A DNA stretch of 64,000 bases from Candidatus Binatia bacterium (lineage in GTDB: Bacteria > Desulfobacterota > Binatia > UBA9968 > JAJDTQ01): contig OY762897.2 of NCBI GenBank assembly GCA_963666515.2, positions 3,552,001 through 3,616,000 of the forward strand. Reading direction: 5' to 3'. This document shows positions 21,333 through 43,332 of the stretch, in pieces. The notes under the pieces are model-generated. The model saw only the letters and a program-made list of their open reading frames with translations, had not been told where the DNA came from and searched no databases. How positions within the stretch are numbered: the first letter of the stretch is position 1; each line of letters starts with the position of its first letter. The translations under genes were made by a program, and so were the position numbers.

Positions 21333-21376
21333 CCTTGCAAATTAAAACAAACTGTTTTGATTTACAAGGATGATTG
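21326..21376. promoter_or_regulatory. Imperfect palindrome with 24-bp arms overlapping the start codon of the AAA-DUF4143 gene
   Basis: caatcatccttgcaaattaaaaca-aac-tgttttgatttacaaggatgattg; 2 mismatches. Confidence 0.75.
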
Positions 21377-21409
21377 GTTGGTGCATTGCCAGTGGTGCTG
21401 AAACTGTAG

Positions 21410-21802
21410 ATGCCTCCCCCGTTGACAGAAACCCTTCGACGCATTGTCGCCATGCTCGCCGGAAAAAGCGGCGACGTTGGCGAAACTGCGGACGACCCCC
21501 ACGACGACACCCCACCCGACGAAGACCCCGTCGTCCTCCCCATCGAGGACCACATCGACCTGCACCCCTTCGCGCCCAGGGACATTCCGAGCGTGGTGGA
21601 GGAGTACGTCTGGCAGTGCCACGAGGAAGGGCTCCGCGAGGTGCGGATCATCCACGGGCGCGGCAAGGGGGTGCAGCGGCGCATCGTGCAGTCGGCGCTG
21701 GAGAAGAACCCGCTGGTCCTGTCGTGCCACGACGCGCCGCCGGAAAGGGGCGGGTGGGGCGCGACGGTGGCGATGATTCGCGCGAAGGAGGGTGGGGAGT
21801 AG
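21410..21802 (+). CDS. Smr/MutS2-domain protein
   Basis: IDLHPF, VRIIHGRGKG, GGWGAT. Confidence 0.88.
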   Translation: MPPPLTETLRRIVAMLAGKSGDVGETADDPHDDTPPDEDPVVLPIEDHIDLHPFAPRDIPSVVEEYVWQCHEEGLREVRIIHGRGKGVQRRIVQSALEKNPLVLSCHDAPPERGGWGATVAMIRAKEGGE

Positions 21803-21837
21803 GTGCCGGCGGGGCTCGGCTCGGCCGCCACAGAGCC

Positions 21838-23001
21838 CTACGTGACTAGCGCATCCGTCCAGAGCCTTTCGAGAAATCGTTCCCACGGCAGTATCCAGAT
21901 ACCCTCGCCGGTGCGCCGGGGGGCGTCTTCGTTGCAAACGACCACGGCTTGGGCCGGACGATGCTCGTCCATGTAGGCGCGCATGGCCCTGAGTTCCCCG
22001 GGACGGACGCGAGGGCTTCCCTTGACCTCGATGGCCACCTCGCCTGCGCGCCCGAGCACGAAGTCGCACTCCAGGCCCGACTTGGTGCGCCAGAAGCGCA
22101 CCGGGAAGTCGTACTCGCGGTAGGAGCGATAGGCGAGCAGCTCCATCAGGACCAGGTGCTCCAGGGCACGGCCGAAGTCGGCGCCGTGCCCGTGTTCGAT
22201 TCGGCGTCCGGTCACGTGGCCGGCTACACCCACGTCGAAGAGATAGAATTTCGGCGCGCGCGTGATGACCGCGCGCGAGCGACGCGGACTGAACGGCTCC
22301 ACGAAGACGCCCAGCAGCGTATCGACGAGTATCTGGAAATACTCGCGCACGGTCTTGGAATCGACGCCACAGTCCCTGGCGACGTTGCTGTAGTTCAGAA
22401 GCTCTCCGTGGCAGAAAGACAGGGCTTCGAAAAACCTCGAGAAGCCCGCGACGTTCCGTGTCAGCCCTTCGTCGAAAACCTCCTCTTTCAGATAGTCATC
22501 GACGTAGCCCGCGAGGGCACGCCGGTATCCAGCGGCATCGTAGTGCTGCGGCACCAGCCCTCGGTTGAGCGCCCTCAATAGATCGAACTCCGGCACTTCC
22601 GGCCACGTCAGCGGATGGAGCTCGAAACGCCAAGCGCGGCCGCCCAGCAGGTTGGCGCGGCCGCGCTTCAGCTTTCTGGCGCTGGAACCGCACAACACGA
22701 AGCTCAACCCTTCGTTCTCGATGAGTCGATGAACCTCGTCCAGAACGGCTGGCGCCTTCTGCACCTCGTCGACGATGATGGGGTTGGAGCGGGTCGCTTG
22801 ATCGAATGCCGCCACGCGTTCCGCGAACGCCCAGGGCGCCCGCGTGAGTTCCAGCATGAGCCGGGTGTCGAGCAGGTCGAACCGGGCAGCCTCGGGGAAA
22901 AGCGCGCGGAGCAAGGTGGACTTGCCGGTCTTGCGGGGTCCCCACAAGAAAGCGGACTGTCCCGGTGGCAGGTCCAGGCGGAGGGTCCGGTAGTAGTGCA
23001 T
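21838..23001 (-). CDS. Second AAA_14 ATPase with DUF4143 domain
   Basis: GPRKTGKS, IVDEVQK, GSSARKL, PKFYLFDVG, FWRTKSGLECDF, IEVK. Confidence 0.9.
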   Translation of the reverse strand: MHYYRTLRLDLPPGQSAFLWGPRKTGKSTLLRALFPEAARFDLLDTRLMLELTRAPWAFAERVAAFDQATRSNPIIVDEVQKAPAVLDEVHRLIENEGLSFVLCGSSARKLKRGRANLLGGRAWRFELHPLTWPEVPEFDLLRALNRGLVPQHYDAAGYRRALAGYVDDYLKEEVFDEGLTRNVAGFSRFFEALSFCHGELLNYSNVARDCGVDSKTVREYFQILVDTLLGVFVEPFSPRRSRAVITRAPKFYLFDVGVAGHVTGRRIEHGHGADFGRALEHLVLMELLAYRSYREYDFPVRFWRTKSGLECDFVLGRAGEVAIEVKGSPRVRPGELRAMRAYMDEHRPAQAVVVCNEDAPRRTGEGIWILPWERFLERLWTDALVT

Positions 23002-26509: not shown

Positions 26510-26824
26510 CTACTCGTTGCTCTCTTGGGATTTTTTGGCGATCTCAAGGAATTTGGTGACGGCCTCAGTAAGCGTTCTCATGTTGGCCGTCAACTGGGCA
26601 ACGTCGGCCTTCAGTTCGTCTTGTCCTCTCGCGAGCCGGGCAACGTTAGCCTCCAGTCGGGCAACATTGCCCTCCACCCCCTTCAGCCGAGCCGCTTGCA
26701 GCTTGACCTCGGTTACTTGCGCCTGAACGTAGAACACGGCCGTTCCGGTGAGGCCGATAACGGCTACCATGGCAATGACAACGCTGCTGAAGCTGGACCA
26801 TACCTCACGAATGCTGTCTGCCAT
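26510..26824 (-). CDS. Small membrane-anchored coiled-coil protein
   Basis: AAGGAG ribosome-binding site, one TM helix, heptads VEGNVARLEANVARL. Confidence 0.7.
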   Translation of the reverse strand: MADSIREVWSSFSSVVIAMVAVIGLTGTAVFYVQAQVTEVKLQAARLKGVEGNVARLEANVARLARGQDELKADVAQLTANMRTLTEAVTKFLEIAKKSQESNE

Positions 26825-27052
26825 TTGAACTGCTCCTTTCCTTCTCGTATATCGGGCCGACCCTCTTTGTCAACAGACACCGGTCATTGCGCTCTCCGCG
26901 CCCTCTGCGGTCTCGGCGGTGACGACGATTGGTTACTGCCCCCCTCTATAGGTAAGTCGGCCGTGGTGGGTGAAACTTTAGGTTTGGGGATGGGGCGCTT
27001 GGGGAGGAGTCTGTCCGAACGCTGCTGGGATGGGGTAGAATCAGCATCGACG

Positions 27053-28462
27053 ATGCCGTTCCTCTTGCAACTCACCCGGCCGGAGACCCTGCTGGTGCTT
27101 CTGTGGGCGTCGCAGTTGGTTCGGATGGCGTGGCCGGTCGCTGCCGCGGACCTCGCGGGGGCGGCGATCGCGGCGGCGTTCATCCTGCGGGTGTTCGTGT
27201 TCCTGCGCCGGCCGACCATCGTCCTGTGCTGCACCCTCGCCGCCCTGGCCGTCCTCCTCATCTTCCTCTACGGCGAGCCCGCGGCCGTGCTGGTGGGGTT
27301 CAAGGCGGCGCCCATGTTCGCGGGCTTTTTCGGCAGCATCGTGCTTCTGCGCGCCACCGGCGAGCAGCTCCAGCAGACCGCCCAGGCGCGCGAGCTGTTC
27401 GCGCGTCTCAAGCCCGACCACCGGCTGGGCGGCTTCCTGGTGGGCAGCCACCTGCTGGCAGTGGTGCTGGGACCCGGCGCCTACGCCATCACCGCCCCCA
27501 TCATAGGCGCTGGCAACGATGACGACTCCTCGGCACTACGACGGCGCAGCAACACGGGCGCCGGTGCCGGACGCCTGGACAAGGACGAAGAGGAGAGCGA
27601 GGCGGAGCGGGAGCACTTGGCGGCCATGCGCGCGTGCCATCGGGGCGGCGGCCTCGCCGGCCTGTGGTCGCCGTTCTGGATCGCCATGGCGCTGTCGTCC
27701 CAGTACGTGCCGGGGGTGCCCCTGTGGCACACCATGGCGCTGGGCATGGCCATGGCCGCGTGCGCGTTGACGGCCTCCCACGTGCTCTTCGCCCCGGAAC
27801 CGGGCGTCACCCTGCTGTGGCGGGCGCTGCGGAGCCTCCAGCCCATCGTCCCGCCGGTGGCGGCGTGCGTCCTGACGGTGGCGGTTCTTTCGGGGGTGAC
27901 GGTGCTGTCGGGCCTGGAGGCGCTGATCGTGAGCGTGCCGGTCCTTTGCGCGCTGGCGCTGCTGGGAAAGGGCCGGCGCGCGCTCGCGACCGGCTTGGCC
28001 GACACCTACCGGGGCGCCGCCCACGTCGGCAACGAGATCGCGATCCTCACCATCTCGCTGGCCCTGGGCGGGGTGGTCCGGCACGTCTTCGCGCACACCG
28101 GGATCACCGACTGGATCGGCGGCCTCGACCTGCCTGCGGCGGCCGTCATCGCCATCATGATCGGCGCCACCTCCCTCGGCGCCCTGGCCGGGGTGCACCA
28201 GATCGTGTCCGTGTCGCTGCTGCTGACGGTGTTCTCGGAGCTGCCGGTGCGGGTGGCCGGCGTGGTGCTCATCGAGAGCACGCTGGCGGCCTGGTCGTGC
28301 TCGTCCATCATCGGCCTTTCCGCCATCATGGTCGGCACCGCCACCGCCATATTCCGCGTCCCCCCGGGAAAGGTCATCCTCGGACCCAACCTCCGGTTCG
28401 CCGCCCTGTTCGCCGCCGGCTCCATCCTGGTACTGGCGGGCGTCAACGCGCTGCTGGTATGA
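27053..28462 (+). CDS. Multi-pass membrane protein (putative ion-transporter-superfamily permease)
   Basis: About a dozen hydrophobic segments, WSPFWIAM motif; start inferred. Confidence 0.65.
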   Translation: MPFLLQLTRPETLLVLLWASQLVRMAWPVAAADLAGAAIAAAFILRVFVFLRRPTIVLCCTLAALAVLLIFLYGEPAAVLVGFKAAPMFAGFFGSIVLLRATGEQLQQTAQARELFARLKPDHRLGGFLVGSHLLAVVLGPGAYAITAPIIGAGNDDDSSALRRRSNTGAGAGRLDKDEEESEAEREHLAAMRACHRGGGLAGLWSPFWIAMALSSQYVPGVPLWHTMALGMAMAACALTASHVLFAPEPGVTLLWRALRSLQPIVPPVAACVLTVAVLSGVTVLSGLEALIVSVPVLCALALLGKGRRALATGLADTYRGAAHVGNEIAILTISLALGGVVRHVFAHTGITDWIGGLDLPAAAVIAIMIGATSLGALAGVHQIVSVSLLLTVFSELPVRVAGVVLIESTLAAWSCSSIIGLSAIMVGTATAIFRVPPGKVILGPNLRFAALFAAGSILVLAGVNALLV

Positions 28463-28485: not shown

Positions 28486-30759
28486 TCAGAACTCCCGGCG
28501 CCAGCCGGCGAGGAAGGTCATCTCCGGGTGCGCGGCCCTGCGATGTCCGGGCCGGTGGCTGTAGACGGCGCCGAGGCGAAGCTCACCCTCCGCCAGCGGG
28601 CGGCGCCATTGTCCCGCGAAGTCCATCTGCCGGCCGCTGGGCGCCAGGTCCGCGGCGGCCGAGCCGTACCACACCGAGCCCGCCCTGGTGCGGCCGGCCG
28701 GGGCCGTGAACCAGGCCCGGCCGCTCTCGACGCGCAACGGCTGCGACACGGAAAAACGCAACCGCCCCGAACCGGCGAGGGCCGTGCCGGCGTGAAGCGC
28801 AAAGGCGCTGGTGGCGAGCGGGGACACCCGCGTCACGAGTCCGCCTCGGGCCGCCGGGGCGACGAACCCGAACTCCGCGTTGGCGCCGATGCGCCATCGG
28901 CCCAGATCCGTATGCGCGTCCAGGCCCAGGAACGCGGTATTTGCGGCCAGCCTGCCGAAAGCGCCTTCGCCGACGCTTCCGAGCAACGTCTCGCGCTCGC
29001 CGATCCATCCGGCCCGGACCCCCAGCGGCAGCCCCGCACGCCGCCAGCTCAGCGCCGCGCCGACCGCGGGCGCCTGCCCCGGAATCCCCTTCGTGGTGAA
29101 GGCCGCGGCGGACAGCCCGCCCGATCCGGCCAGGGTGGCCTTCACCGCGCCTTCGGCCAGGGCCAGGTGGCTGCCCCGCACCTCCACCGTCCTCTCCAGG
29201 CGGGCGATCCCGAGACTCCCGGGAGCCGTCTCGCCTCCGGCGGGCTCGGGCGCCAGAAAGCGGCGGAGGCGCGCCGATACCGGCGTTTCCGGGGCGGGGG
29301 CGGTGAAGTTTCCCAGGCGGTACCAGAACGGGGCTCCGAGAGCGTCCAGCGCCATGATCTCGCGTGCGGCGAGCGAACGCTGGAGAGCGTCCCCGAAGGC
29401 CGCTCCCGGCAGAAGCCGCGTCGACGCCAAACGGACGCCGTTTCGCCCCACACTGCCGCCCGACGCCAGACGGACGCCGTTTCGCCCCACGCTGCCGCCC
29501 GACGGCAGCGCCAGGACGCCCACCGGGGAGGTCGCGGCGCCCAGGTTCATCGAGCCTTGCCCGTAGACGGCCGCGTCGGCGTACGCGCCGCTCTTGTCCG
29601 CGGTCTTGAACAGCCGCGTCACCAGCTCGGTGCTGGACAACTGGTCGCGGAAGAGCTGCTTCATCAGCGCCAGCCCGCCCGCCACCATGGGCGCGGCAAC
29701 CGACGTCCCATCGACGCTGGCATAGCCCCGAACCGGGCCGAGGCCGTCCTCGTCGGGGCCGAAGTAGGCCGCCCGGACGTCTTTCCCGGGCGCCGCAATG
29801 CAATACTCCGCGGCAATGCCGCAACGGTTGGAAAAGGAGGCGATCCGCCCGTCGTCGGGGCTCAGGGCCACCACCGCGACGGAATGGCCCCGAAGCTCGG
29901 CGATGCGCGCCGCCAGACCCGGCAGCACCTCGACCGAGACCGCGTTGATGGCGCCGTCCTCGCAATGGTCGGTGGCCGATGGCTCGCAAGGGTCTCCGTG
30001 GGCGTTGCCGGCCGCCCACACGAGAAGGGTCTTTTCGCCGGCGCCGGCCTGCGCCATGGCGGCAATCGCGTTCGGCAGGCTGGCGCGAAGCTCCGTCTCG
30101 GTGTAGTCGTCGATGATGCCGTGGAAGCCGATGCTCAGGTTCAGGACGTCCACCCTCCGGTCGCCGTCCCGCCAGGCCAGGATGTGATCGAGCTGCTCCT
30201 TCCAATCGGCGTCGGCGGCGGCCAGCCGGGCGAGCGATACCGGGCGGTAGTCGTGGACGCCTGAACCCAACGGTATGCCGAACATGGCGATGTCCGCGGC
30301 CCACGCCACGCCTTGCATTTCGTCGGGCGGCGAAGACCGCGCGGCCGCGGCCACGCTCGCCACCGCGGTACCGTGCGAGAAGGTCTCGCCGGTCTCGTCG
30401 GACGCGCCCGACAGGAGTTCCTCGGTCACGGTCTTGCCGGCGAACGCGGGGTGTTCCAGGTCGATTCCGCTGTCGATGAAACCGATGGTCACACCGGAGC
30501 CGGGCTCGGCGTCGCTGCCTTTCAGCGCGGCGAGGTTGCCGTAGGCCGCGCCCGCTCCGACGTGGCGCAGTCCCCACTGCGTCGCGAAGTCGTCAGGTGG
30601 CCGTCCGCCGCCACCGCCTCCACCTCCGCGTCCGCCTCCACCCCCGCCACCGCCTCCGCAGCCGCCGAGCGTGAGCAGGACCGAGAGAAGGATGAAACAG
30701 GCAAGAGCCGGATGACGGGCCGCGGGTCCGGCTTGCCGCTCCCGTTCGGGATAGCGCAT
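28486..30759 (-). CDS. Lipidated S8 (subtilase) serine protease with C-terminal beta-barrel-like domain
   Basis: Lipobox LGGC plus poly-Gly; triad GFIDSG / SHGTAVA / GTSVAAP; AAGN oxyanion motif; ends WRREF. Confidence 0.88.
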   Translation of the reverse strand: MRYPERERQAGPAARHPALACFILLSVLLTLGGCGGGGGGGGGRGGGGGGGGRPPDDFATQWGLRHVGAGAAYGNLAALKGSDAEPGSGVTIGFIDSGIDLEHPAFAGKTVTEELLSGASDETGETFSHGTAVASVAAAARSSPPDEMQGVAWAADIAMFGIPLGSGVHDYRPVSLARLAAADADWKEQLDHILAWRDGDRRVDVLNLSIGFHGIIDDYTETELRASLPNAIAAMAQAGAGEKTLLVWAAGNAHGDPCEPSATDHCEDGAINAVSVEVLPGLAARIAELRGHSVAVVALSPDDGRIASFSNRCGIAAEYCIAAPGKDVRAAYFGPDEDGLGPVRGYASVDGTSVAAPMVAGGLALMKQLFRDQLSSTELVTRLFKTADKSGAYADAAVYGQGSMNLGAATSPVGVLALPSGGSVGRNGVRLASGGSVGRNGVRLASTRLLPGAAFGDALQRSLAAREIMALDALGAPFWYRLGNFTAPAPETPVSARLRRFLAPEPAGGETAPGSLGIARLERTVEVRGSHLALAEGAVKATLAGSGGLSAAAFTTKGIPGQAPAVGAALSWRRAGLPLGVRAGWIGERETLLGSVGEGAFGRLAANTAFLGLDAHTDLGRWRIGANAEFGFVAPAARGGLVTRVSPLATSAFALHAGTALAGSGRLRFSVSQPLRVESGRAWFTAPAGRTRAGSVWYGSAAADLAPSGRQMDFAGQWRRPLAEGELRLGAVYSHRPGHRRAAHPEMTFLAGWRREF

Positions 30760-30772
30760 GGCCGCCGTGCCC

Positions 30773-32131
30773 TCAGAACTGCCGGACGAAGCGGATCTCG
30801 CCGCTGGTACGCTTGTAGTCGTGGGCCTGGGCGTTGGAGGAGCGGACCTCCCGCACCAGCGCCACTTGCGGACTGAAACCCATGAGCGTAAAGGCGCGGT
30901 TGAAGACCGACGCCCGGAGGTTGTAGGTCCTGTCTTCCCGGGAAACCCCTCCCGGCGTCAGGTACCCCCAGTTGCCCCGGTAATCCGTCCAGCGGTAGCC
31001 GCCGCCGCCGCCGACCGTGAACCCCAGCGGCAAGGCCACGGACACGCCGGCCTGTAGCCACCGGCTCTCGTTGCGGCTGGTCAGGGTCGCGGGCCGATCG
31101 CGTCCGTGTCCGGCGGTCAGGTCGAGCCGCACGGTGGGCGTCAGCAGGAAGCCGGCGCCGGCCGTGACGCTCCGCACCGGTCCGTCCAGGTGGTTCCGCC
31201 CCCGGTAGCGGCGGTCGTGCCACGACGCGGTTCCGTTGAGCATGAGGCGCCGGTTGAGCCGGTGCCTCATCATCAGCCGTCCGCCCAGGTCCAGGTGGTC
31301 CCTCGTGCCCCCGCTCCAGATTTGGCGCCCGCTGCCCAGCACGCTGAACTCGGTGTTCCGGCCGGCCAGCACCCGCGGACCGGCGTGCACCGACACCAGC
31401 ACCTTGTCGAACTTCTGCGCGGAGTATTCCCTGATCGACGCGTCCGCGCCGGCGCGGAGCCTAAGCCGGTCGCCCAGCGGGTGCTGGTATTCCCCGCCGG
31501 CCCACACCGCCAGCCCCACCCCCGACGTGGTCAGCTCCTCCTCGTCCCGGATGAACGGCAGCCCGAAGATGTAGATGGTCCTCTCGTCGGATGCGCCGCC
31601 GATGTTGGTGTCCGGCGCCAGCGCGAGGCCCATGTGCATGGTCCAGCGCCGGCGCGCCCGTATCTGCGAAAGGAACCGCCGCACGTTGGCGACCACCGCA
31701 TCGGGCGGGTCTCCGGCCAGGACGCGCTCGAAGTGCTCCCGCGACAGGCCGTCCTCCCGCTTGTAGAAGAACGCCCGCGCCAGCTCCAGGCGCACCCGCA
31801 CCAGGCCCGGCTCGTTCACCAGAAGCCCCCGGAGCGCGGCGATGGCCTCGTCGAGCAGCGCCAGCTTCTCCTTCCCGTCTTCCGGCGGCGCGCCCAGCGA
31901 CGCCTCGATCGCTGCCAGGGCCAGCAGGAAGGCCGCGTTCTTGTCGTCCGGGTGCTCCGCGGCCCACGAACGCAGGACGCCCAGCGCCTCCATGTAACGG
32001 CCCTGGTCCATCAGGACGCGGGCGTTCTTCAGCCCGGGACCGGCCGAAGGGCCGGAACGGGCGTGGCCGTCCCAACCCGATGATTGACAGAGCAGGAGGA
32101 AGAAGAGCAAGGCGCCGATGGATTTCTTCAT
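30773..32131 (-). CDS. Slam/DUF560-type surface lipoprotein translocon (type XI secretion outer-membrane protein)
   Basis: Signal peptide, TPR region (RVRLELARAFF..FERVLA), PDTNI barrel start, amphipathic strands, terminal F. Confidence 0.8.
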   Translation of the reverse strand: MKKSIGALLFFLLLCQSSGWDGHARSGPSAGPGLKNARVLMDQGRYMEALGVLRSWAAEHPDDKNAAFLLALAAIEASLGAPPEDGKEKLALLDEAIAALRGLLVNEPGLVRVRLELARAFFYKREDGLSREHFERVLAGDPPDAVVANVRRFLSQIRARRRWTMHMGLALAPDTNIGGASDERTIYIFGLPFIRDEEELTTSGVGLAVWAGGEYQHPLGDRLRLRAGADASIREYSAQKFDKVLVSVHAGPRVLAGRNTEFSVLGSGRQIWSGGTRDHLDLGGRLMMRHRLNRRLMLNGTASWHDRRYRGRNHLDGPVRSVTAGAGFLLTPTVRLDLTAGHGRDRPATLTSRNESRWLQAGVSVALPLGFTVGGGGGYRWTDYRGNWGYLTPGGVSREDRTYNLRASVFNRAFTLMGFSPQVALVREVRSSNAQAHDYKRTSGEIRFVRQF

Positions 32132-32227
32132 GGAGAATCTTTCGTCCGACACCAGAAAGGGCAGCCTTTCGGCTGCCCTTTCCTCGGTTTTAACCAACGT
32201 TGTGGTCGACTTTGCGGTCGTCCCGCC

Positions 32228-34924
32228 TCACTGTTTCTTTGCGCCGAAAGCGCCCACGAAGGTCTCGCTTTCATCCGCGTTCGTCACACCGAAGGTGCCG
32301 GCGACGGAACCCGGGTGCCGGCCAGCGTCGTTATCCGAATCGGCGGCCGGTTGTGCACCGTAGAATTGCCCCTGCCAGGAGCCGCTGAACTTATAGCCGC
32401 CAGCAGTAAGCTCCTCGCCCATCCTCGTGGAACCGCTGAAGGTGCCATTAGAGGCTGCGATATTTGTGCCCGTCACGTTGTTGCTGGGAACGTCATGATC
32501 CATGTATATGGTCTTGTCATAGTCCTCGCCGTGCGAAACGATGTTTTCGATCCTCCCCGAGATGGTCCCTATCTGGGTTGTATTATTACCAAACTGGGCA
32601 TTCAGGGTTGCATCCCCATGGAACCAGTCTACCCTGTTGTACTCCTGGCCTGCCGGCGCCGGTCTCGAGTGCACGCCTGCAGCGGCGCCTCTATACGTCG
32701 CAGTACCCGTAAGCGCCTGCCAGTTTGCCTCCGAATTGCCCCCAACCGGCACGTAGGGGAGGTTACCATCCGCGAAAGCACCGAATTCAAAGGTGCTGGC
32801 GGCGTTGTCGCCCGTTGTTTCCGTCAGCCAGACGCCAAAGACGAGATAGTCCGAGTCGGCAGCTCCGGCAACGTACGTCGTATCGGTCCTGGAACCGGTA
32901 AACGTGAAGTCGCCAGTCATTGCGGTTACTCCCCCGCTGGGCGTGCGCGTTATCGTGCAAGTATTCATGCAAGTGAACGTGCCGCTAAGCGGCTTCGTGG
33001 CTGCCTGCTCGTCGTGGTCGTATTTTCCGGTGAAGGTTTGCGTGTTGTTGGTAGTGGTCAGCGGTCCTGCATCCGTTATCCGGGATGGGTTGTCCTCGGC
33101 GACATCTGTATCAGTGACTGATACGAGGCTCGTCGTCGTATTCGTTTTTTGCTGCGCAATGTCCGTGAATGCAAGAACATAAGCTTTTCCAACGGTTTCG
33201 TTCTGGTCATTCTGAAGGTTACCGCTGTAATCGAAGCCAAGTTTGAATTCGGAGGACGGCAGTCCATCCTCCTGGTCGGTGTTTTTGGTGGTGGAAGAAC
33301 CGTATGCGTCTCCGCTGCTGTTACTATCGCCATCCAGATCGACGGTAACGGACGCAATCGCTTCGTTCTTGTCGTCGGACAGATCGGCGTCGTGCGGATA
33401 CGTAGCGGTCGCCGTAGAAACGTTCCGGTTAGCAGTGTCGGTGTCGTTGGACCTGCTATCGTGGTTCTGAGCGGCATCAGCGATTTTCGCTTGAGCGTTC
33501 TTGATCGTATCCGCCCGCCTTTTCGCTATCAACTTAAGCTCATCGTCATCCACGTTGGCCGGATCGGTCACGACAACGCTGTAGGCGTTCGCGCTCTTGA
33601 ACAAGCCCAGGACGTGCGTGTTCCAGGCCTTCATGGCCGCAGTCTCTGCCGACTCCGCCTCGCCCCTTTTGGTCTCGGCGGTCGTCTGCCGCTTCTCTGC
33701 TATGTCCTGCTGGCCCTCGGCCGCGATCCTGTATTCCTCCGCCTTGTCGGCCGTGGTGCCGTCCTTAGCCGCGTCGTCCGCTGCTTTTTTCGCTGCGTCC
33801 GCTGCTGTTCTCGCCTCGTCCGCTGCTTTTTTCGCGTCCTTAGCCGCGTCGTCCGCGTCCTTCGCGCTCTCCTTTGCATTCTCTGGACTGGTCTCGTAAT
33901 CTGTCCTTGCCAGCTTTGCCTTCTCGGCCGAACTGGCCGCGTTGTCCTTTGCGATTTTCGCCGCGTCACTAGCCGTTTTCGCCTTCTTTGCTGCCGCTTC
34001 CGCCGCGTTGGCTGCCGCACGGGCCTCCCGGCGGTTACGGTCCAGTTTGACGAGGTTGTCGGTGTTCGTGATCCTGTCGTACTCCTCCTCGACATCCTCC
34101 AACGCCTTCACTACCTTGTCCCGCTCGGCTTCAGCCTTGGCCTGCTCGGCCTTTGCCGTTTCGGCCGCTGCCTTCCGGTCAACCATTTTATCGGCGTCAT
34201 TCGCCGCGTCGCGCGCCTTTTCCGCCGCGGTAGCCGCGGTTTCCGCTGCCGTCGCCGCCGCCTCCGCTGTTTTCGACGCCGGGGAATTAGCGCCCACCTG
34301 ATTAGTGACGTAGTTGGCCATCGTCCGAGCGTTTACAGGGACGTTGACTGTGTTACCGTCTGCGTCTGTGTATGTGTCACCGGCCTTCCTGGTGTCGGTG
34401 GAGTCCCCGGCCTTCATCCGGGCCTCGGCAGCAGCGGCGATCGCATCCGTTCTGGCCTTGCCCAAGTCGATCTCGTAACCGGCGAACATCACGGCAGTGC
34501 TAACCCCGTTCGCTTCCTGCCCTGCCAGGACCTCCGCCGCGTCTACCTTGGCTTTTTCCGCCTTCGCGACAGCCAGGTCCGTCGCCGCCTGGACTGCGGT
34601 ATTCGCAGTCTGCGCGCTTGTGTCGGCCGCATCGAGGTCCGCCTTGTCGGCCTTCGCGACCGCAATCGCCTCGGCGTATCTCAGCTTGTTGATATTGGCG
34701 TTTCCTCCCATCCCGTCAACACCGCCGATCGCCTTGCCAGCGTCCTCCTTCATTTTCGCGACTCGCGCCGCCGCATCCCTCGCATCCTTTTTCAACTTCT
34801 CCAACTCGGTCTGGTCGACCGGCGGAGGAGCAGACGTGCCGCCACCGCCGCCGCAGCCATACACCATCATGGAGAGTACGGCGACGAGGCAGATCGCCAT
34901 CAAATTCTTGAATGACTTAGACAT
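32228..34924 (-). CDS. Large surface lipoprotein with Ala/Lys-rich coiled-coil stalk and TbpB-like C-terminal barrel
   Basis: Lipobox VYGC-GGGGG; YLVFGVWL, GTATYRGAAAG, GSWQGQFYG, VAGTFG, FVGAFGAKKQ. Confidence 0.82.
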   Translation of the reverse strand: MSKSFKNLMAICLVAVLSMMVYGCGGGGGTSAPPPVDQTELEKLKKDARDAAARVAKMKEDAGKAIGGVDGMGGNANINKLRYAEAIAVAKADKADLDAADTSAQTANTAVQAATDLAVAKAEKAKVDAAEVLAGQEANGVSTAVMFAGYEIDLGKARTDAIAAAAEARMKAGDSTDTRKAGDTYTDADGNTVNVPVNARTMANYVTNQVGANSPASKTAEAAATAAETAATAAEKARDAANDADKMVDRKAAAETAKAEQAKAEAERDKVVKALEDVEEEYDRITNTDNLVKLDRNRREARAAANAAEAAAKKAKTASDAAKIAKDNAASSAEKAKLARTDYETSPENAKESAKDADDAAKDAKKAADEARTAADAAKKAADDAAKDGTTADKAEEYRIAAEGQQDIAEKRQTTAETKRGEAESAETAAMKAWNTHVLGLFKSANAYSVVVTDPANVDDDELKLIAKRRADTIKNAQAKIADAAQNHDSRSNDTDTANRNVSTATATYPHDADLSDDKNEAIASVTVDLDGDSNSSGDAYGSSTTKNTDQEDGLPSSEFKLGFDYSGNLQNDQNETVGKAYVLAFTDIAQQKTNTTTSLVSVTDTDVAEDNPSRITDAGPLTTTNNTQTFTGKYDHDEQAATKPLSGTFTCMNTCTITRTPSGGVTAMTGDFTFTGSRTDTTYVAGAADSDYLVFGVWLTETTGDNAASTFEFGAFADGNLPYVPVGGNSEANWQALTGTATYRGAAAGVHSRPAPAGQEYNRVDWFHGDATLNAQFGNNTTQIGTISGRIENIVSHGEDYDKTIYMDHDVPSNNVTGTNIAASNGTFSGSTRMGEELTAGGYKFSGSWQGQFYGAQPAADSDNDAGRHPGSVAGTFGVTNADESETFVGAFGAKKQ

Positions 34925-35143
34925 CTATGGTCTCCTTTTCTTTAGGGTCTGTAGCCGATGGATGGATTCAGTCGCAAGAAAGACCGGCGACCTCAACTCA
35001 CGATCCCCGTCAAGGACAGCGCCGTCCTGCCCCCTCAGGGACAATTCCTCATGCTTGGCATGTCTTCGAATTCTCCTTTCCTGTGGGCTGGAGCCGCAAG
35101 CAAAGGCCGTCACTCGTAAAGCTGGAACAATCATATCCCGGCA

Positions 35144-35172
35144 CATATAGCACCAAGTCTCGCGGACTGCAA
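35144..35172 (-). promoter_or_regulatory. Putative sigma70 promoter for the surface-lipoprotein operon
   Basis: Minus strand TTGCAG-N17-TATATG with an extended TGn. Confidence 0.5.
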
Positions 35173-35464
35173 CCACTTTTTTACAGGATTTTACGCCATT
35201 CCGCACAAAGACGCCCTGGAAAGCGAAAGCCCGTCGTCGATGGTCCTGTTCCCGTACCATCATCGAAAGAGGATTGCAACCGGGGGGGGCCGCCCGGTCG
35301 ACCCGGTTTTTTCCGTGACCTGGGCTTTTTTTCCGTGACCCGGGCGCTTCCGTCCATCCGCCCATCTCGTCGGCGGCTCGTTTGACTTGTTCCGGGAAAG
35401 CCTGATAAAGGACAATCCCGGACCGCAGTTGGGCGGGGAATTTCAAGCACAGGGAGGACATCCA

Positions 35465-35680
35465 TTGGCAACCTCCGTCACAGCCCCCATGGTGGGCAAG
35501 ATTCTGAGGATCGAGGCGAATCCCGGCGAGGCCGTGGAAGAGGACGACGTGGTCATCGTGATGGAGGCCATGAAGATGGAGATCCCGGTGGTGGCGCCGG
35601 CCGCCGGGACGGTCAAGGCGGTCAAGGTCGAGGTCGGGCAGTCGGTGGAGGCGGGCGAGGAACTCGCCGAGATCGAGTAG
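35465..35680 (+). CDS. Stand-alone biotin carboxyl carrier protein
   Basis: GGAGGA ribosome-binding site, TTG start, APMVG and EAMKME biotinylation motif. Confidence 0.88.
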   Translation: MATSVTAPMVGKILRIEANPGEAVEEDDVVIVMEAMKMEIPVVAPAAGTVKAVKVEVGQSVEAGEELAEIE

Positions 35681-35731
35681 CCGCGCGCCCGCGCACGGCT
35701 TTCGCCCCGGCAGGGTTGAGGCAGGTTCGAC

Positions 35732-35848
35732 ATGGGTACCTGGGAATTCGGCCTCACGGTTGCGCTGGTGGGCAGCGTCGGCACCTTGGTGGTGCTGTGG
35801 CTGCTGAGCCTGCTGATTCTGCTGATCCGGAAAATCTTTCCTTCGTGA
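35732..35848 (+). CDS. OadG-like gamma/delta subunit (38 aa, not in the ORF track)
   Basis: MGTWEFGLTVALVGSVGTLVVLWLLSLLILLIRKIFPS; single TM helix between the biotin carrier and the beta subunit. Confidence 0.7.
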   Translation: MGTWEFGLTVALVGSVGTLVVLWLLSLLILLIRKIFPS

Positions 35849-35903
35849 TTCCCGGCCCCCGGGAACCACGTAAGGAGCGGGACTCACCCTTCACAACAAG
35901 AAT

Positions 35904-37046
35904 ATGGAATCCGCGATCCTCTCCGGCGTCCTGGGGCTGCTTGACGGCGTTTCGCACCTGGCGCTCGGCCAGGTGGTCATGATGGCCATCGCCGGGACGC
36001 TGCTCTACCTCGGCATCGTCAAGGGGTTCGAGCCGCTGCTGCTGGTGCCCATCGGCTTCGGCGCCGTCCTGGTGAACATCCCCCAGGCCGAGTTGATGGC
36101 AGAAGGGGGCACGCTCCGGTTCTTCTACGACTTCGGCATCCGCACGGAGATCTTCCCGGTGCTGATCTTCATCGGCATCGGCGCCATGACCGACTTCGGG
36201 CCGCTGTTCTCCAACCCCAAGATCATCATGCTGGGCGCGGCCGGGCAGTTCGGCATCTTCCTCACGCTGCTGCTGGCCCTGGCGCTGGGCTTCGACAAGC
36301 TGGACGCCGTGGCCATCGCCGTCATCGGCGCGTGCGACGGTCCCACTTCCATCTACGTGACCTCGCGCTACGCCCCCCACCTGCTGGGGGCGGTGTCGGT
36401 GGCCGCCTACTCGTACATGTCGCTGGTGCCGCTGATCCAGCCGCCGATCATGCGGGCGCTGACCACGGCGCGGGAGAAGCAGGTCGTCATGGGCATGGTG
36501 CAGCAGGCGCCGGTGTCGAAGACCACGCGCATCCTGTTTCCCATCGTGGTCACGGTGGTGGCTTCGATCATCGCGCCCCTGGGGACGCCGCTCATCGGCA
36601 TGCTGATGCTCGGCAACCTGCTGCGGGAGAGCGGCGTGGTGGAGCGGCTCAAGCTGACCTCGGAGAACGAGATCGCCAACATCGTCACGCTGCTGCTGGG
36701 GCTGGCCATCGGCGGCACCATGGCCGCGGACGGGTTTCTCCGGGTGGAGACCCTGATGGTGCTGGCCCTGGGGCTCGTGGCCATCGGCCTGGACACGGTG
36801 ATGGGCGTGCTGTTCGGCAAGGGCATGTGCCTGCTGAGCCGCGGCAGGATCAACCCCCTCATCGGCGCCGCCGGCATCTCCGCCTTCCCCATGGCCGCGC
36901 GCGTGGTGCAGAACGAGGGCCAGCGCTACAACAAGAAGAACCACCTGCTGATGCACGCCATGAGCGCCAACGCCGGCGGCCAGATCGGCTCCGTCATCGC
37001 CGCCGCCATCATGCTCTCGGTGCTGCGGGGGATGGGGATCATCTGA
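35904..37046 (+). CDS. Na+-translocating decarboxylase beta subunit (OadB/GcdB/MmdB family)
   Basis: FEPLLLVPIGFG, GAMTDFGP, IGACDGPT, AAYSYM, SAFPMAARV. Confidence 0.93.
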   Translation: MESAILSGVLGLLDGVSHLALGQVVMMAIAGTLLYLGIVKGFEPLLLVPIGFGAVLVNIPQAELMAEGGTLRFFYDFGIRTEIFPVLIFIGIGAMTDFGPLFSNPKIIMLGAAGQFGIFLTLLLALALGFDKLDAVAIAVIGACDGPTSIYVTSRYAPHLLGAVSVAAYSYMSLVPLIQPPIMRALTTAREKQVVMGMVQQAPVSKTTRILFPIVVTVVASIIAPLGTPLIGMLMLGNLLRESGVVERLKLTSENEIANIVTLLLGLAIGGTMAADGFLRVETLMVLALGLVAIGLDTVMGVLFGKGMCLLSRGRINPLIGAAGISAFPMAARVVQNEGQRYNKKNHLLMHAMSANAGGQIGSVIAAAIMLSVLRGMGII

Positions 37047-38391: not shown

Positions 38392-39651
38392 TTACTCACT
38401 GGCGGCGTAAATCGTTAGAAAGAGTTCTGCATCGTCAATCAGCCGGTACTCGGGCTCTCGGCCGGACAACTGAGCGCTACGATCCAAGATAAGCGGCACG
38501 CCTTCACCGCGTTTGTCCATCATGTTCCGTCGGTCCGTCGTCAACCAAGCCCCGTCAGGCACTGCACACTTGGCCAAGAGACTGCAGATCGCCTCGTTCC
38601 GGGCTGACTGCCGGTAGCGGAGACTCTCAATGGTCAAGGAGTTAGGAACGGTCCCGGGGGAATAGATCTCCAGGCGGTTCTCAAATAATCGCAGTCTTAC
38701 CTTGGAGCCATGGATCGAGTAGTCCCTGTGAGCCACGGCGTTCACGATAGCCTCGAATACGGCCGTCATCTCATACTGTGGTTTGTCAGTGCGTCCTTGG
38801 TCCTTGTATGCCGCCGTCTTCATGTTCCTGGCCACGAATCGACAAGCCTCAACTATCTGCTGATCGAGAGGTCCTGACACGTCCGCAGCGTCAAGCTGGT
38901 AGGCATCAACCGTCGAAGGTCGAATGACGTCTCCGCGATATGCGACTGCTTGGATATACGCATTGGGTAACCACAGGCGCGGATCTTCGGTCGCCATCAA
39001 GATGCCGGCCACCGTTGGCTTCATCGCGCCGTCCTCGTCGGCACGTACCATACCAAGCTTGCCAAGAAAATCGTCCCGGTCGTCGTCGGAGCGGGACGTG
39101 CGAAACCGCTGCCACAAGCGTGGTTCCAGATTGTCCATTCGAGCGGTCCCGACGACCTGCTCGTCGAAGCGGATGAGACGCGTTTGACTGCGTTGCTGAA
39201 AGAGACGGGCAAGCCTCTCCGGGGACATCGGGCGTTTTGAATCAGTCGTCCGAGCCATGAATCCGCCCGGGCTTCGATGGACAAACAGACTTCGCGGTAC
39301 TTCCACCTTTACAACGGCCAATGGCTCACCAGAACTGGAAGGTAACCGTAGTCGCTCTAGAACGACGTCTTCAATGGGGGGAACGATGGAATCCGAGCAC
39401 ACTTCGCGAACGAGATCCACGACTGCATCCAGGCGCTCCTCTGGAATACCAGTCACTTCATGAGTCTTGTCCTCAACCCCGAGGACAAACACGCCACCAT
39501 GACTGTTGGCAAAAGCAGCCAGCCCGTCTGCGAGCGCGTCGCGGCTTGGTCCCCGGACCTTGCCGCCAGCGAAGCGCACTTCCTTGAACTCCAGACGGCT
39601 GCTTTCGCCCAGCCGAATTGCGTCTAGTAGCTCCAATGGGTTGTCAAACAT
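38392..39651 (-). CDS. Schlafen/AlbA_2 domain fused to a RecG-C/HATPase_c_4-like domain
   Basis: GESSRLEFKE, AFANSHGG..LGVED; EAIVNAVAHRDY, IYSPG, RN; lower GC. Confidence 0.85.
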   Translation of the reverse strand: MFDNPLELLDAIRLGESSRLEFKEVRFAGGKVRGPSRDALADGLAAFANSHGGVFVLGVEDKTHEVTGIPEERLDAVVDLVREVCSDSIVPPIEDVVLERLRLPSSSGEPLAVVKVEVPRSLFVHRSPGGFMARTTDSKRPMSPERLARLFQQRSQTRLIRFDEQVVGTARMDNLEPRLWQRFRTSRSDDDRDDFLGKLGMVRADEDGAMKPTVAGILMATEDPRLWLPNAYIQAVAYRGDVIRPSTVDAYQLDAADVSGPLDQQIVEACRFVARNMKTAAYKDQGRTDKPQYEMTAVFEAIVNAVAHRDYSIHGSKVRLRLFENRLEIYSPGTVPNSLTIESLRYRQSARNEAICSLLAKCAVPDGAWLTTDRRNMMDKRGEGVPLILDRSAQLSGREPEYRLIDDAELFLTIYAASE

Positions 39652-42445
39652 ACTTGGGGTCTCTTCCCAGACGCGCCCAGCGGCGTGCGAACGCTTCACG
39701 CCCGCCTTCCATGACTCGGCACACTTCCTCGCGCACTGACGCGTCCTGAAGCGCGCCACGCTGAATGACGCGACATTGGCCCGTATTGAAATCCAGCGCG
39801 TGGACCATCTCGGCATCCCCATTCACCACGACATTGGGGTTGTGCGTTACAATGATGAGTTGCCTGCGCAGCTTGTTCGCGCGAATTTGGCGTACGATCA
39901 GGTCGTAGATCAGGTGATTGTCCAGATCATCCTCCGGTTGATCGAGCACCAAGGGTTCCTCTCCAAATGCGAGCAGAAACGCCAGCAAAGCCGCCGAGCG
40001 TTGGCCCTGTGAGCCTTCTCGGATCGGCGCCCACTGGTTGTCGCCACGGCTGTATTCGATGCGCAGGTCGTCTTCGGGGAACCAGCAACGGAGGTGATCG
40101 GCAAACTCCGGCCTTTCCAACTGGCGCTTCAGGTAGTTTCGGAAGTGACCGCCGAGCCTTTCGTCAACGTCGATCATCCTTTGCTTCACTTCAGCGAGTT
40201 TCTCCGCGCGATCGGTCGCTTGCGACAATTCTATTACCAGACCGGATTTGGGCTCACCGTTAACCAAATGGAGTAGATCGCCCTCGAAGCGTTCATCCTC
40301 CACGTCCAGCATTGCACGCAGGCTGCGCTCAATCACTTGCGCATCAAAGCCAAACGGGACCACTTCCATTTTCACGAACGCATTGGTCGCCAATGCACCG
40401 TCCACAAACGCCGCTCGTGCCTCTGCTATCGCTTTGCGTGCCCAAAACACTCGTTGCCATTGAGCCTCAATATCGGTTTCCAGCCGCGCCGCCTCCTCCT
40501 GCAACTGTTCGAGTTCCTTACCTTGTGCTTCCAAACGCTGCCGTTCCAGGACGAGATCGCCAAATACGCGTGGGTCGGACACCCCTTGTTCCGCCAATGT
40601 GACTTGAAGTGCGTCATAGGCTGCATGGGCTTGATCCGCGCGTTGGCGCCATTTGTTGAGCCGATCATGTGAAACAAGGGGTTGCGTTGTAGCGAGCAAG
40701 TTTCCACCTGCCTCGGCCAGTGCTTCAAGCGCTTCCGACAATACCTTCTCTACCTCACGGCGCCACTCCAAGGCATCGGCATCCAGTTCGGTATCGAAGA
40801 CATCCTCTGGCCAGTCGTCGAGTAGCAAATCCTGCGCGAATGTCTGGATCCGTTCGGGTATCTCCTTCAACTGCTCTAACGTGGCGTCGATTTCCCGTCG
40901 CTGTCTCGTCGCCTGTTGGTGGGCCTTCAGGACCTCCGCATGGTGTGATTGAGTCAAAGTATCGAGCTTGCGAGACACCTCATCGAGCTTGCGCTGCAAC
41001 TCCTGCCGACCAGCCAAGCGTCCTTCGAGTTCACGGAGTCTAGCTCGTTGGTAGAGGTACGTGTTCTTTGCTTCGTCGAAGATCCGATGCTGCGCGGCAA
41101 CGTGTGCTTCATCATCAATAATATCGAGCAAGGCTTGGCGATTGTCGCCCGCCATTGCTGCAATCTGTCCCTGTGACAGCAGACGAATTGGAAAGCGCTC
41201 GGCATGAATGGCCTGGCTGCCAGAGGGTCGCCACTGGCCATCAGCGTCGCATTCTTCGACAACATCTCCTGTTCCGTCTGGACGCCACCGCAGCCTGTGG
41301 ACGACGCCTTCGCGTAGCAATTCGACCCTGATTTCCGTGTTCTCTCGTAGCGCGCCGCCGCCGTCACGGCCTTTGACTGGTTTCACGAAAGCTTCAAGGT
41401 GACGACGCGGATCCGCGTCTTCGCTCAGTCTCTTGAGTTCAGACTCGCGACGATACGCCAACCGCATCGCACATACGAGGGTGGACTTGCCTGTGCCGCG
41501 GCCGCCGACCACGGCATTGTAAAATGGACTCAGCGCTACGGTCTCGGGGACTCCGTTCCCCATAAAGCGAGCGCTTCGAACCTCCAAACCGGTAATGAAG
41601 TGCGCAGGTGTCTTGAACGGCTCGAACCCACCCTCGTCGCTACGCCGAATCGAAACGCCATTGCCGTCCAACAGCGCTAGCCGGAGCCCTTCAAGTGAAG
41701 GCTCTGCCATCTTCACCCAAGTGTACTGGGAACCAGGACTGAATTTGCCCTGCAAATCATGGCAATCACTGCCGAGGACTTCGGACCACAACAACTTACG
41801 TTCGTGATAGATTTCAGGTTTCGGGTTCCTCGTATCCACCACCTCCATTGCCAGAATACCGGGTTCATCCAGAACTTGACGGACGGAATTGGCGTCAAGT
41901 GCGCCGGAATTCCCCTGTTTCACGCGCAACAACCCCTTTTCGCCATCAGCATGGGCCGGAATCGGGATGCCTCCAGCGTTCAACACGGTTTTGACGACCT
42001 CCGCAGCCCCCTTACGCGTGACGCCGTCGCTTTGACCCTTGGCGCCGTCGTAGTCCACCTGTCCCAGCAAGGTGTCAACTTGGGCCGTGTCGGCACTTGG
42101 ATCGAGGATGACCAAGAGATGAAAACCACCATGCACCGAAATCTCTACCCCCGGGAACAGCGTCAGTTCCCGGAATCCCGCAAGCCCGGATTCAGATATG
42201 GCTTGTTGCTTCATCCCCTCATACGCGTGCTTGAGCTCATCGATCCACGCGCCGGTGTTGTGATCGGTCACGACCACGCAGTCGATTTCTGCGGCCATAT
42301 GACACAATAGCCACGTCTCCGGTGTCAGTACCTGATCGTCACTCGACGCCATGAAATCAAAAGAAGCAGGGGTATGGGTGTGGAAATCGAATCTCCACCA
42401 CCGCGACCCTGGATAAGGCCACCCTGGTGTTATGCCCGCGGTCAT
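39644..42445 (-). CDS. PHP-phosphoesterase / ABC-ATPase fusion (Ppl / TrlF-like anti-phage protein)
   Basis: DFHTHT, TDHN, GVEI, AH, SDCH; Walker A GGRGTGKS, coiled coil, SQGQ, DQPEDDLD, VTHN; start inferred at 42445. Confidence 0.85.
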   Translation of the reverse strand: MTAGITPGWPYPGSRWWRFDFHTHTPASFDFMASSDDQVLTPETWLLCHMAAEIDCVVVTDHNTGAWIDELKHAYEGMKQQAISESGLAGFRELTLFPGVEISVHGGFHLLVILDPSADTAQVDTLLGQVDYDGAKGQSDGVTRKGAAEVVKTVLNAGGIPIPAHADGEKGLLRVKQGNSGALDANSVRQVLDEPGILAMEVVDTRNPKPEIYHERKLLWSEVLGSDCHDLQGKFSPGSQYTWVKMAEPSLEGLRLALLDGNGVSIRRSDEGGFEPFKTPAHFITGLEVRSARFMGNGVPETVALSPFYNAVVGGRGTGKSTLVCAMRLAYRRESELKRLSEDADPRRHLEAFVKPVKGRDGGGALRENTEIRVELLREGVVHRLRWRPDGTGDVVEECDADGQWRPSGSQAIHAERFPIRLLSQGQIAAMAGDNRQALLDIIDDEAHVAAQHRIFDEAKNTYLYQRARLRELEGRLAGRQELQRKLDEVSRKLDTLTQSHHAEVLKAHQQATRQRREIDATLEQLKEIPERIQTFAQDLLLDDWPEDVFDTELDADALEWRREVEKVLSEALEALAEAGGNLLATTQPLVSHDRLNKWRQRADQAHAAYDALQVTLAEQGVSDPRVFGDLVLERQRLEAQGKELEQLQEEAARLETDIEAQWQRVFWARKAIAEARAAFVDGALATNAFVKMEVVPFGFDAQVIERSLRAMLDVEDERFEGDLLHLVNGEPKSGLVIELSQATDRAEKLAEVKQRMIDVDERLGGHFRNYLKRQLERPEFADHLRCWFPEDDLRIEYSRGDNQWAPIREGSQGQRSAALLAFLLAFGEEPLVLDQPEDDLDNHLIYDLIVRQIRANKLRRQLIIVTHNPNVVVNGDAEMVHALDFNTGQCRVIQRGALQDASVREEVCRVMEGGREAFARRWARLGRDPKYV

Positions 42446-42468
42446 CGACCCGTGTCCTCCACCTGCCC

Positions 42469-43332
42469 CTAGTCGATGAACTTCGCCAGGGTCTCGCCCC
42501 AGATGGCCTTGGTCACGTCGAGACTGATGTTGCCGGCGGCGATGTCCTGGATGCGGGCCTCGTCGATGGGGAAGCTGAACTGCTCGTTGCGCATGCGCAG
42601 GCGCTGGACGCCGCGCTCCACCATCAGCCCCCGGGCGCCGTCCACCGCCTCCTGCCGGGTGAAGGCGTCGGCGATCTGGTAGATGTTGGCCGGGCCGTGG
42701 CCGCGCTCGTCGTCGAGCACCACGGTGAAGGCCTCGGACAGGCGGTCGTTCAGCTCGCTGCCGCTCAACCGGGAGGCGGCGTAGAACAGGCCGCAGCTTC
42801 CGCCTTCGAGCAACCCCTGGGAGTTGATGAGACGCGCCCAGGGCTCCTGTCGAGCCTCCTGCTCCTTGAACACCTCCGCCAGCCGCACCCATTCCTTCAT
42901 GTCGGGCAGCGACGGATCGGGGGTCCAGCGGTTGTAGCGCCGCACCACTTCCTTGATGTCCACCGGCTCGCCGGTGAGCCATTCGATGATGTCCACGCAC
43001 CGGTTGCCGTGGTTCAACTCCTGCTTGGTGCGCCAGAGGTTCTCCTCCAGCCAGTTCCGGTCCACGTCGCCGCCCCACCGGTCAACCCAGTACCGGTCCG
43101 ACGCCGTCAGGTCGCCGCCGACCTTTTCGACGATCTCCTTCAGGCCGGTGAAGGTGCTCTCGATCTCCCGGCCGGCCTGCTTGGTGAGCCAGAGGACCTC
43201 CTTGTCGCGGTCCCGCCGGTCCCAGTTGAAGTAGGTGTCGGCGATCTCCGCCTCACCGGCGGCGAAGACCGCGGCCACCCGCGCCAGCTCCCGCGTCGCC
43301 CGTTCCGTAAAGCCGTTGTCCGCTTCGCTCAT
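42469..43332 (-). CDS. Ferritin-like diiron-carboxylate protein of unknown function
   Basis: E(GRE)...QELNH...LLEG...DDERGH ligand pattern; start overlaps the stop of the upstream gene. Confidence 0.7.
   Translation of the reverse strand: MSEADNGFTERATRELARVAAVFAAGEAEIADTYFNWDRRDRDKEVLWLTKQAGREIESTFTGLKEIVEKVGGDLTASDRYWVDRWGGDVDRNWLEENLWRTKQELNHGNRCVDIIEWLTGEPVDIKEVVRRYNRWTPDPSLPDMKEWVRLAEVFKEQEARQEPWARLINSQGLLEGGSCGLFYAASRLSGSELNDRLSEAFTVVLDDERGHGPANIYQIADAFTRQEAVDGARGLMVERGVQRLRMRNEQFSFPIDEARIQDIAAGNISLDVTKAIWGETLAKFID

Follow-up and report, generated by a model that had tools for sequence, protein, structure and literature searches.

A Slam secretion locus with a recurrently linked, lipidated subtilase in Candidatus Binatia

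Background

Do three adjoining genes in a Candidatus Binatia genome form one system that displays a protein at the cell surface and then trims or releases it? The genes lie in a 64-kb stretch of DNA (the window; contig OY762897.2, positions 3,552,001-3,616,000) and encode a lipoprotein with a long stalk, an exporter of the Slam family, and a lipidated subtilase, a protease of the S8 family. Slam proteins are the exporters in the type XI secretion system (T11SS), and the lipoprotein is called the cargo here. All coordinates are in window numbering.

In the literature the T11SS is an exporter made of one protein, and its tests have been confined to animal-associated Proteobacteria. A Slam clade across uncultured lineages, together with a protease that is recurrently linked to it, would make a compact three-gene system for display and release, directly testable in E. 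coli. Should the protease have nothing to do with the cargo, the locus would come down to a common T11SS pair in a lineage new to it, and an unnamed family of barrels.

The locus is a genuine T11SS cassette, in a lineage for which no description was found. The lipidated subtilase is a recurrent, not an obligate, neighbour, and is better termed a recurrent partner than a dedicated one. The three tight genes that look like an operon are a local state of this window. The preferred explanation is that Slam displays the stalked cargo, and that the lipidated barrel protease acts at the surface like NalP of Neisseria, trimming or releasing such cargo. We put its probability at about 0.45, just short of even.

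The locus

The cassette comprises these features:

34924-32228, minus strand: cargo lipoprotein P0001, 898 residues, from its translation and family alignments
32155..32182, minus strand: terminator-like hairpin, between the cargo stop and the Slam start
30773..32131, minus strand: Slam P0002; the longest open reading frame (ORF) runs from TTG 32197 and has 474 residues
30759-28486, minus strand: protease P0003, 757 residues, from PF00082 and an AlphaFold2 model

A first-pass annotation of this DNA had described three co-oriented, closely spaced genes, and both the coordinates and the minus strand of all three ORFs are confirmed. It had missed the hairpin. The likely start of Slam is the ATG at 32131 (452 residues), downstream of this hairpin, where by eye a signal-peptide-like stretch begins (MKKSIGALL). 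From the cargo stop to this ATG there are 96 nucleotides; 13 separate the protease ATG from the Slam stop. Contigs of the public run X5 bridge both gene junctions (31766-36055 and 29526-31789); as this run may be the window's own sample, they are not independent support.

Two contigs make up the host genome (G000) of 4.67 Mb. In it are one protease of the family, two Slams and three cargo-profile matches, plus a two-barrel lipoprotein that adjoins the second Slam.

The exporter

The middle gene had been called a Slam, and this stands: it matches PF04575 (DUF560) along the full 288-position profile with 76.3 bits, where the cut-off is 22. Its architecture is a signal peptide, a region of tetratricopeptide repeats (TPR), the DUF560 barrel and a terminal Phe. 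The TPR matches fall at residues 56-153, with 27 bits for TPR_14 (cut-off 23.5) and 29.8 bits for TPR_Slam, which is under its cut-off of 35.2. A sequence search of the PDB returned helical-repeat matches only, and no Slam structure was found.

Relatives of this Slam were matched in 24 of the 28 genomes of the genus. PF04575 matches occur in 25 of 201 sampled genomes of the phylum, every one weaker than that of the window Slam. A scan of GTDB genomes gave 397 Slam-related stretches, the best 80 of which were taken and yielded 79 loci. Among these, 22 are titled Binatia or carry other deltaproteobacterial names, and 57 are titled Alphaproteobacteria, Gammaproteobacteria, Nitrospinota, Chloroflexota, Acidobacteriota or simply 'bacterium'. 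Two of the loci (L107 and L135) were first taken as two phyla; they share neighbouring genes and are therefore counted as one lineage. The closest relatives sit in records titled Candidatus Binatia or Deltaproteobacteria, in agreement with the Deltaproteobacteria-like lineage proposed earlier. Among the isolate prefixes in the titles of these loci are several known from marine-sponge metagenome studies.

That Slam exports the cargo is very probable, given its family membership, the adjacency of the two genes and the published case of Pls and TepS discussed below.

A second, divergent Slam (27% identity) lies elsewhere in the host genome (L001:7263-10866; G000 C1 ~957-961 kb). It is adjoined by a 750-residue lipoprotein with two PF01298 stretches (91.6 bits), with no protease alongside. 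Four genomes titled Alphaproteobacteria (G262, G264, G267 and G273) have 6-9 Slam matches each; G262 and G264 are without a match to the protease barrel profile.

The cargo

The cargo starts with a lipobox (VYG-C24), a pattern that is present in most of its relatives, and a short Gly/Pro tether. The stalk follows at about residues 41-500. It is rich in Ala, Lys and Glu and likely helical, with 27-31% Ala across residues 41-440. A beta-rich middle region with a conserved CxxxC then leads to a C-terminal region of the TbpB/HpuA barrel type, and the protein ends in FVGAFGAKKQ. The GC content at third codon positions is 0.71, as opposed to 0.86-0.97 in neighbouring genes.

The earlier claim of a TbpB-like barrel, made on the GSWQGQFYG stretch and this C-terminus, survives for the family and not for the single protein. 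P0001 alone has no Pfam or PDB match by sequence, and a 21-row alignment likewise has no TbpB match. Of the family's tails, 16 of 89 match PF01298 at E<=0.1 (best 7.5e-5) and 3 match HpuA at E<=0.1. A profile of the 89-row barrel alignment has HpuA (9mr0, E 0.0063) as its sole PDB match. The named Atlas clusters nearest to the family are TbpB_B_D, at 0.91-0.92, and other TbpB-type lipoproteins of the same loci exceed the PF01298 cut-off. The predicted TbpB-type tail thus has its support, from sequence comparison, at the level of the family only. An AlphaFold2 single-sequence model of the last 470 residues was unusable, with a predicted local distance difference test (pLDDT) score of 33.

Cargo genes stand beside Slam in the window and at 52 cargo-to-Slam junctions in related loci. 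Within the genus, the last 380 residues of the cargo are 21-37% identical, versus 50-68% for Slam.

The host genome has two further cargo-profile matches. One is an orphan 362-residue cargo-like lipoprotein with no Slam nearby (L002:8066-9154; G000 C1 ~2.058 Mb), adjoined by a 350-residue ORF that is almost all Asp/Glu/Gly/Asn repeats (L002 9144-10196). The other, at G000 C1:814946-816526 (E 9e-19), lies among metabolic genes, and its end is without the usual GAFGA tail.

The protease

An intact, lipidated S8 protease had been claimed for the third gene, and that is what it encodes. The lipobox (LGG-C34) is followed by a Gly-rich tether, and PF00082 matches with 110.8 bits. Residues D96, H129, N252 and S353 are conserved in 84/87, 83/87, 91/94 and 95/100 of the homologs that have a residue there. 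The catalytic domain has two conserved Cys pairs. Behind it come a short helical linker, a C-terminal barrel at about residues 480-757 and a terminal Phe.

The AlphaFold2 model (115 rows) has a pLDDT of 94.6 and a predicted template modelling score of 0.91. In it, the barrel is of the outer-membrane type, with some 12-14 long strands (DSSP). The fold search used the whole protease model, for which the matches listed by Foldseek are all subtilases. The best fold match of the catalytic domain is Ssp (8e7f: Z 35.5, root mean square deviation 3.0, 303 residues aligned), and its best matches by sequence and by fold include the autotransporter subtilases Ssp and EprS. Six barrel matches are among those listed, ranked behind the subtilisins. 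They are headed by the porin OmpT of V. cholerae (Z 12.9, deviation 3.3, 207 aligned) and OmpG (12.5, 3.8, 193), and include VhChip (Z 12.3), OprP (11.9) and FapF (11.2). No autotransporter barrel is among the six listed, though the fold may still be that of an autotransporter.

Sequence searches place the barrel in no named family. None of 22 barrel sequences matches any Pfam family at E<=1, PF03797 included, and the barrel profile found nothing credible in the PDB or Pfam. The 30 best of the nearest Atlas clusters are all unnamed, and a PF03797 cluster scores only 0.85 (119/256 features). The barrel nevertheless defines a large family without a Pfam name, with 2,409 library representatives (50% identity) at E<=0.001. 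The likeness to NalP on which the first-pass annotation drew is one of layout; the modelled barrel comes without a PF03797 match. The family may be a non-canonical type of autotransporter.

The last residue is F or W in 108 of 115 rows. HHalign gives a probability of 0.13 for barrel versus cargo tail, so the two are unrelated, and the cargo profile has no match to the protease. With its own barrel, a terminal F/W and no relation to the cargo tail, the protease is likely to insert itself and not to be a Slam cargo.

The linker has a 13-residue tandem duplication (~29420-29510, minus strand), and model confidence dips there. In G004 (L033), G003 (L042) and G276 (L180) one of the protease copies carries a frameshift or is split; behind the broken copy, G004 and G003 have an intact one in tandem.

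The hairpin between cargo and Slam

On the coding strand, the hairpin has a 12-bp stem, a GAAA loop and a short U tail (TTTCT). Its stability has a z-score of -4.4, reached by 0 of 200 shuffles. The terminator pattern is found at 35 of 52 cargo stops that precede Slam, while none of 82 Slam stops has it and shuffles give 0-1; these junctions come from related loci and are not independent. The hairpin is likely a leaky attenuator that favours cargo over Slam and protease.

One metatranscriptome run of a related strain (X1, ~93% alike, a single study) has contigs that cover the cargo gene and 34835-35231. One of these contigs ends at 32176, inside the hairpin, which as contigs from one study is less than a weak hint. 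Slam and protease have no real cover in this run, which says nothing on their expression.

Linkage within the genus

The flanks of the cassette are as follows:

34925..35231, minus strand: region upstream of the cargo, a possible 5' leader, with an AAGGAG that resembles a ribosome-binding site
35387..37046, plus strand: divergent biotin-carrier and oxaloacetate-decarboxylase-beta genes (Pfam); context, outside the module
26525..28462, plus strand: convergent membrane-protein gene without a Pfam match; context, downstream marker of the orthologous site

In the upstream region no sigma-70-like promoter was detected, by a scan that is uninformative (1 match, 0.6 expected). The convergent gene ends 23 nucleotides from the protease stop. 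The biotin-carrier and decarboxylase pair adjoins Slam in 15 other genomes of the genus and marks an orthologous site. There, in 18 genomes, Slam lies between this pair and a membrane-protein/xanthine-dehydrogenase-type gene.

The protease query matches 26 of the 27 other genomes of the genus, often in multiple copies. At the orthologous site the protease is present in 13 of 18 genomes (often as a tandem pair), missing in 3, and in 2 the site is at a contig end. The order is cargo, Slam, then in some a MEKHLA gene, then protease in 7 genomes. Extra TbpB-type proteins are inserted in G007, G009 and G013, and in G022 and G025 the cargo is behind the protease. As content and order differ at this site, the 13-nucleotide junction is particular to the window. 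The earlier idea of a self-contained operon does not hold up, given this variation and the hairpin that parts cargo from Slam.

Slam and protease are at most 12 kb apart in 14 of the 21 genomes that have both, counting strong matches among those listed. In a quick protease tree, 20 members of a 26-member clade are Slam-linked. In one genome (G008) the protease paired with Slam belongs to a different clade, and the site is a different one too. The tree being only a quick one, no order of events is claimed.

A standalone MEKHLA gene (PF08670) stands behind Slam in 14 of the 18 orthologous loci (L033, L035, L039-L043, L045, L046, L049-L052 and L054). It is absent from the window locus; the copy in G000 is elsewhere (C1:2232844-2233263). 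MEKHLA was considered as a fourth functional part and rejected. It is found away from Slam in G000 and 9 other genomes and not in the non-Binatia Slam loci, and is therefore taken as a passenger.

Linkage in other lineages

A whole-genome search found the protease family in 32 of 47 non-Binatia genomes reached through Slam. Within 10, 30 and 50 kb of Slam, the protease is found in 6, 12 and 13 of these 32 genomes, where 0.57, 1.44 and 2.27 are expected. Classical PF03797 autotransporters, used as a control, are that close in 0, 1 and 2 of 27 genomes (0.38, 1.02 and 1.65 expected). The expectation is that of random placement with contig ends ignored, and split matches were merged. The 13 linked genomes include kin by shared neighbours (G266/G267; G268/G270; G279/G280/G291), leaving about 9 arrangements.

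Gene orders vary here too. G287 has protease, cargo, cargo and Slam co-oriented, while G276 has protease, cargo and cargo facing a Slam that is preceded by another cargo. Conservation of the protease beside Slam-cargo pairs thus holds for the genus and, in a looser form, for genomes titled Alphaproteobacteria and Gammaproteobacteria, so that a lack of conservation does not count against the proposal. As the family is found near Slam in several unrelated lineages, it may trim or release displayed proteins.

Known systems compared

Like the known Slam systems with TbpB, LbpB, HpuA and fHbp, the locus has, side by side, a gene for TPR plus DUF560 barrel and one for a lipoprotein whose tail is of the TbpB/HpuA type. 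One study reports a lipoprotein gene adjoining about half of the Slam genes (PMC5449769). Unlike those systems, the locus occurs in Binatia-titled or otherwise uncultured lineages, and a Pfam scan of 42 window ORFs revealed no TonB-dependent receptor. Its cargo is also far more variable than its Slam, there is a hairpin behind the cargo, and a protease is the partner.

The closest likeness for the cargo is Pls, exported by TepS in Haemophilus parahaemolyticus. Both are lipoproteins with a long stalk of Ala and charged residues, a beta-rich, pedestal-like middle and a C-terminal barrel. Pls with its helical stalk is reported to appear at the surface and in the supernatant only with its exporter (10.1101/2024.09.26.615229). 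P0001 differs in being longer (898 versus 525 residues), in lacking a literal EEARKA motif and in having a protease encoded in its locus (PMC12282271). The stalk resembles the Pls-like helical repeat in composition only.

The protease shares its lipobox, tether, S8 domain and predicted C-terminal outer-membrane barrel with the subtilase autotransporters NalP (Neisseria) and Ssp (Serratia). SphB1 of Bordetella is a subtilase autotransporter of the same layout. Unlike these three, P0003 has a barrel without a PF03797 match whose listed fold matches are porins, and its protease and barrel are joined by just a short linker in place of a long passenger domain. NalP is not known to be encoded beside Slam. 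One paper reports that NalP frees LbpB, a Slam cargo, by cutting its anchor peptide (PMC3896470).

The first-pass annotation knew of no description of the three genes as one operon. Likewise, a literature search found no paper that treats Slam, cargo and subtilase as one locus, with most subscription papers outside its reach.

Weighing the explanations

The preferred mechanism would run as follows. Cargo and protease would each receive a lipid, at C24 and C34 respectively, and travel to the outer membrane, as their lipoboxes and general lipoprotein biology suggest. Slam would translocate the cargo to the surface by its TbpB-type tail, in line with family, adjacency and the Pls/TepS case. The hairpin would leave cargo mRNA abundant, and Slam and protease mRNA scarce. 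The protease would insert without Slam, through its own barrel: in the model and in profile comparison it has a barrel ending in Phe and no cargo-type tail, which suggests no need for Slam. It may then cut the tether or stalk of the cargo, as its recurrent co-location with Slam and the precedent of NalP and LbpB would suggest.

A good deal weighs against this. Cleavage of the cargo is a proposal drawn from co-location and from the analogy with NalP and LbpB, and NalP spares TbpB (PMC3896470). Pls is released in E. coli without a partner protease (10.1101/2024.09.26.615229). Most of the linkage in the genus goes back to a single inherited site, where three genomes (G027, G005 and G006) retain Slam without the protease, and where another (G019) has Slam and two proteases but yielded no cargo. 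The claim of a dedicated protease fails on the numbers. Among the matches listed for the genus, the strong ones, with fragments joined by hand, amount to 54 protease genes; 22 of these are within 12 kb of Slam and 32 are not, some being on other contigs. A further 26 weaker matches lie outside this count. Slam appears in only 1 of 27 protease-anchored metagenome loci, 11 of which are under 6 kb. Only 3 of the 57 non-Binatia Slam loci show the protease in their 10-kb flanks, one as a barrel fragment, and in 19 of the 32 genomes it is more than 50 kb from Slam or on another contig. Nominal P values overstate the excess near Slam because of the kin among the 13 linked genomes. Finally, in 4 of 21 genomes the protease is no more than 10 kb away from a classical autotransporter, with 0.34 expected (G296 C1 3.35 Mb, G279 C1 0.58 Mb, G289 C3 1.22 Mb and G269 C29). 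This hints at a role in maturation, and it fits general islands of surface genes.

Several of these points suit a different explanation. The T11SS cassette would be real, and the protease an independent surface enzyme that shares variable islands with it but leaves the cargo uncut; it would act on proteins of a host or the environment, or else mature autotransporters. Its odds are clearly short of even, yet it is a serious possibility. Most members of the protease family are not near Slam, the protease clusters with autotransporters too, and insertion sequences and swapped content occur at the orthologous site. The unrelated MEKHLA gene sits behind Slam in most orthologous loci, so conserved adjacency there need not mean shared function. 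A controlled neighbourhood survey points the same way. It counts PF00082 20 times with cluster-1 T11SS, where the control for cluster 1 has 19 and that for cluster 3 has 1, and shows no S8 enrichment in its two studied clusters; PF00082 is not on its false-discovery-rate sheets, and MEKHLA is not in those of its supplements that were searched (PMC12282271). What speaks for a functional pairing is that autotransporters, which are accessory surface genes as well, are not in excess near Slam (1/27 versus 12/32 for the protease, within 30 kb), and that the pairing comes back with proteases of different clades and in different gene orders.

Two other roles for the protease are less probable. It might face the periplasm, held by lipid and barrel, and clear unexported cargo or outer-membrane proteins, which would be quality control and not shedding. 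The porin matches of the barrel, its lack of a PF03797 match and the short helical linker in the model would allow this; the match of the protease domain to Ssp and EprS does not favour it, and on balance it is unlikely. Autotransporter subtilases such as Ssp and EprS are surface-exposed. Very improbable is that the protease is a second Slam cargo. It is a lipoprotein encoded 13 nucleotides behind Slam in the window, but it has no TbpB-type tail, the cargo profile misses it, and it has an outer-membrane-type barrel of its own with a terminal Phe. It is also present in G001, where the Slam query matched nothing.

Display by Slam with NalP-like trimming or release thus remains the preferred explanation, and it can be extended. 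This large family of subtilases, unnamed, lipid-anchored and equipped with a porin-like barrel, would then supply the T11SS with a shedding enzyme in uncultured, probably host-associated bacteria, repeatedly paired with Slam-cargo islands in Binatia, Alphaproteobacteria and Gammaproteobacteria. Together they would display and release hypervariable stalked surface proteins, with the output set by the terminator behind the cargo. This wider proposal is tentative, at somewhat less than even odds.

Other features of the window

A short ORF at 26510-26824 (minus strand) has one hydrophobic segment and a coiled coil, and no confident family. Similar ORFs recur around the locus across many genomes of the genus, as in L033, L034, L038, L042 and L046. 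Two tandem AAA_14/DUF4143 ATPases are encoded at 20157-23001. At 38392-43078 (minus strand), an AlbA_2/HATPase_c_4 gene is followed by a long AAA/SMC-like ATPase gene, in DNA of lower GC content.

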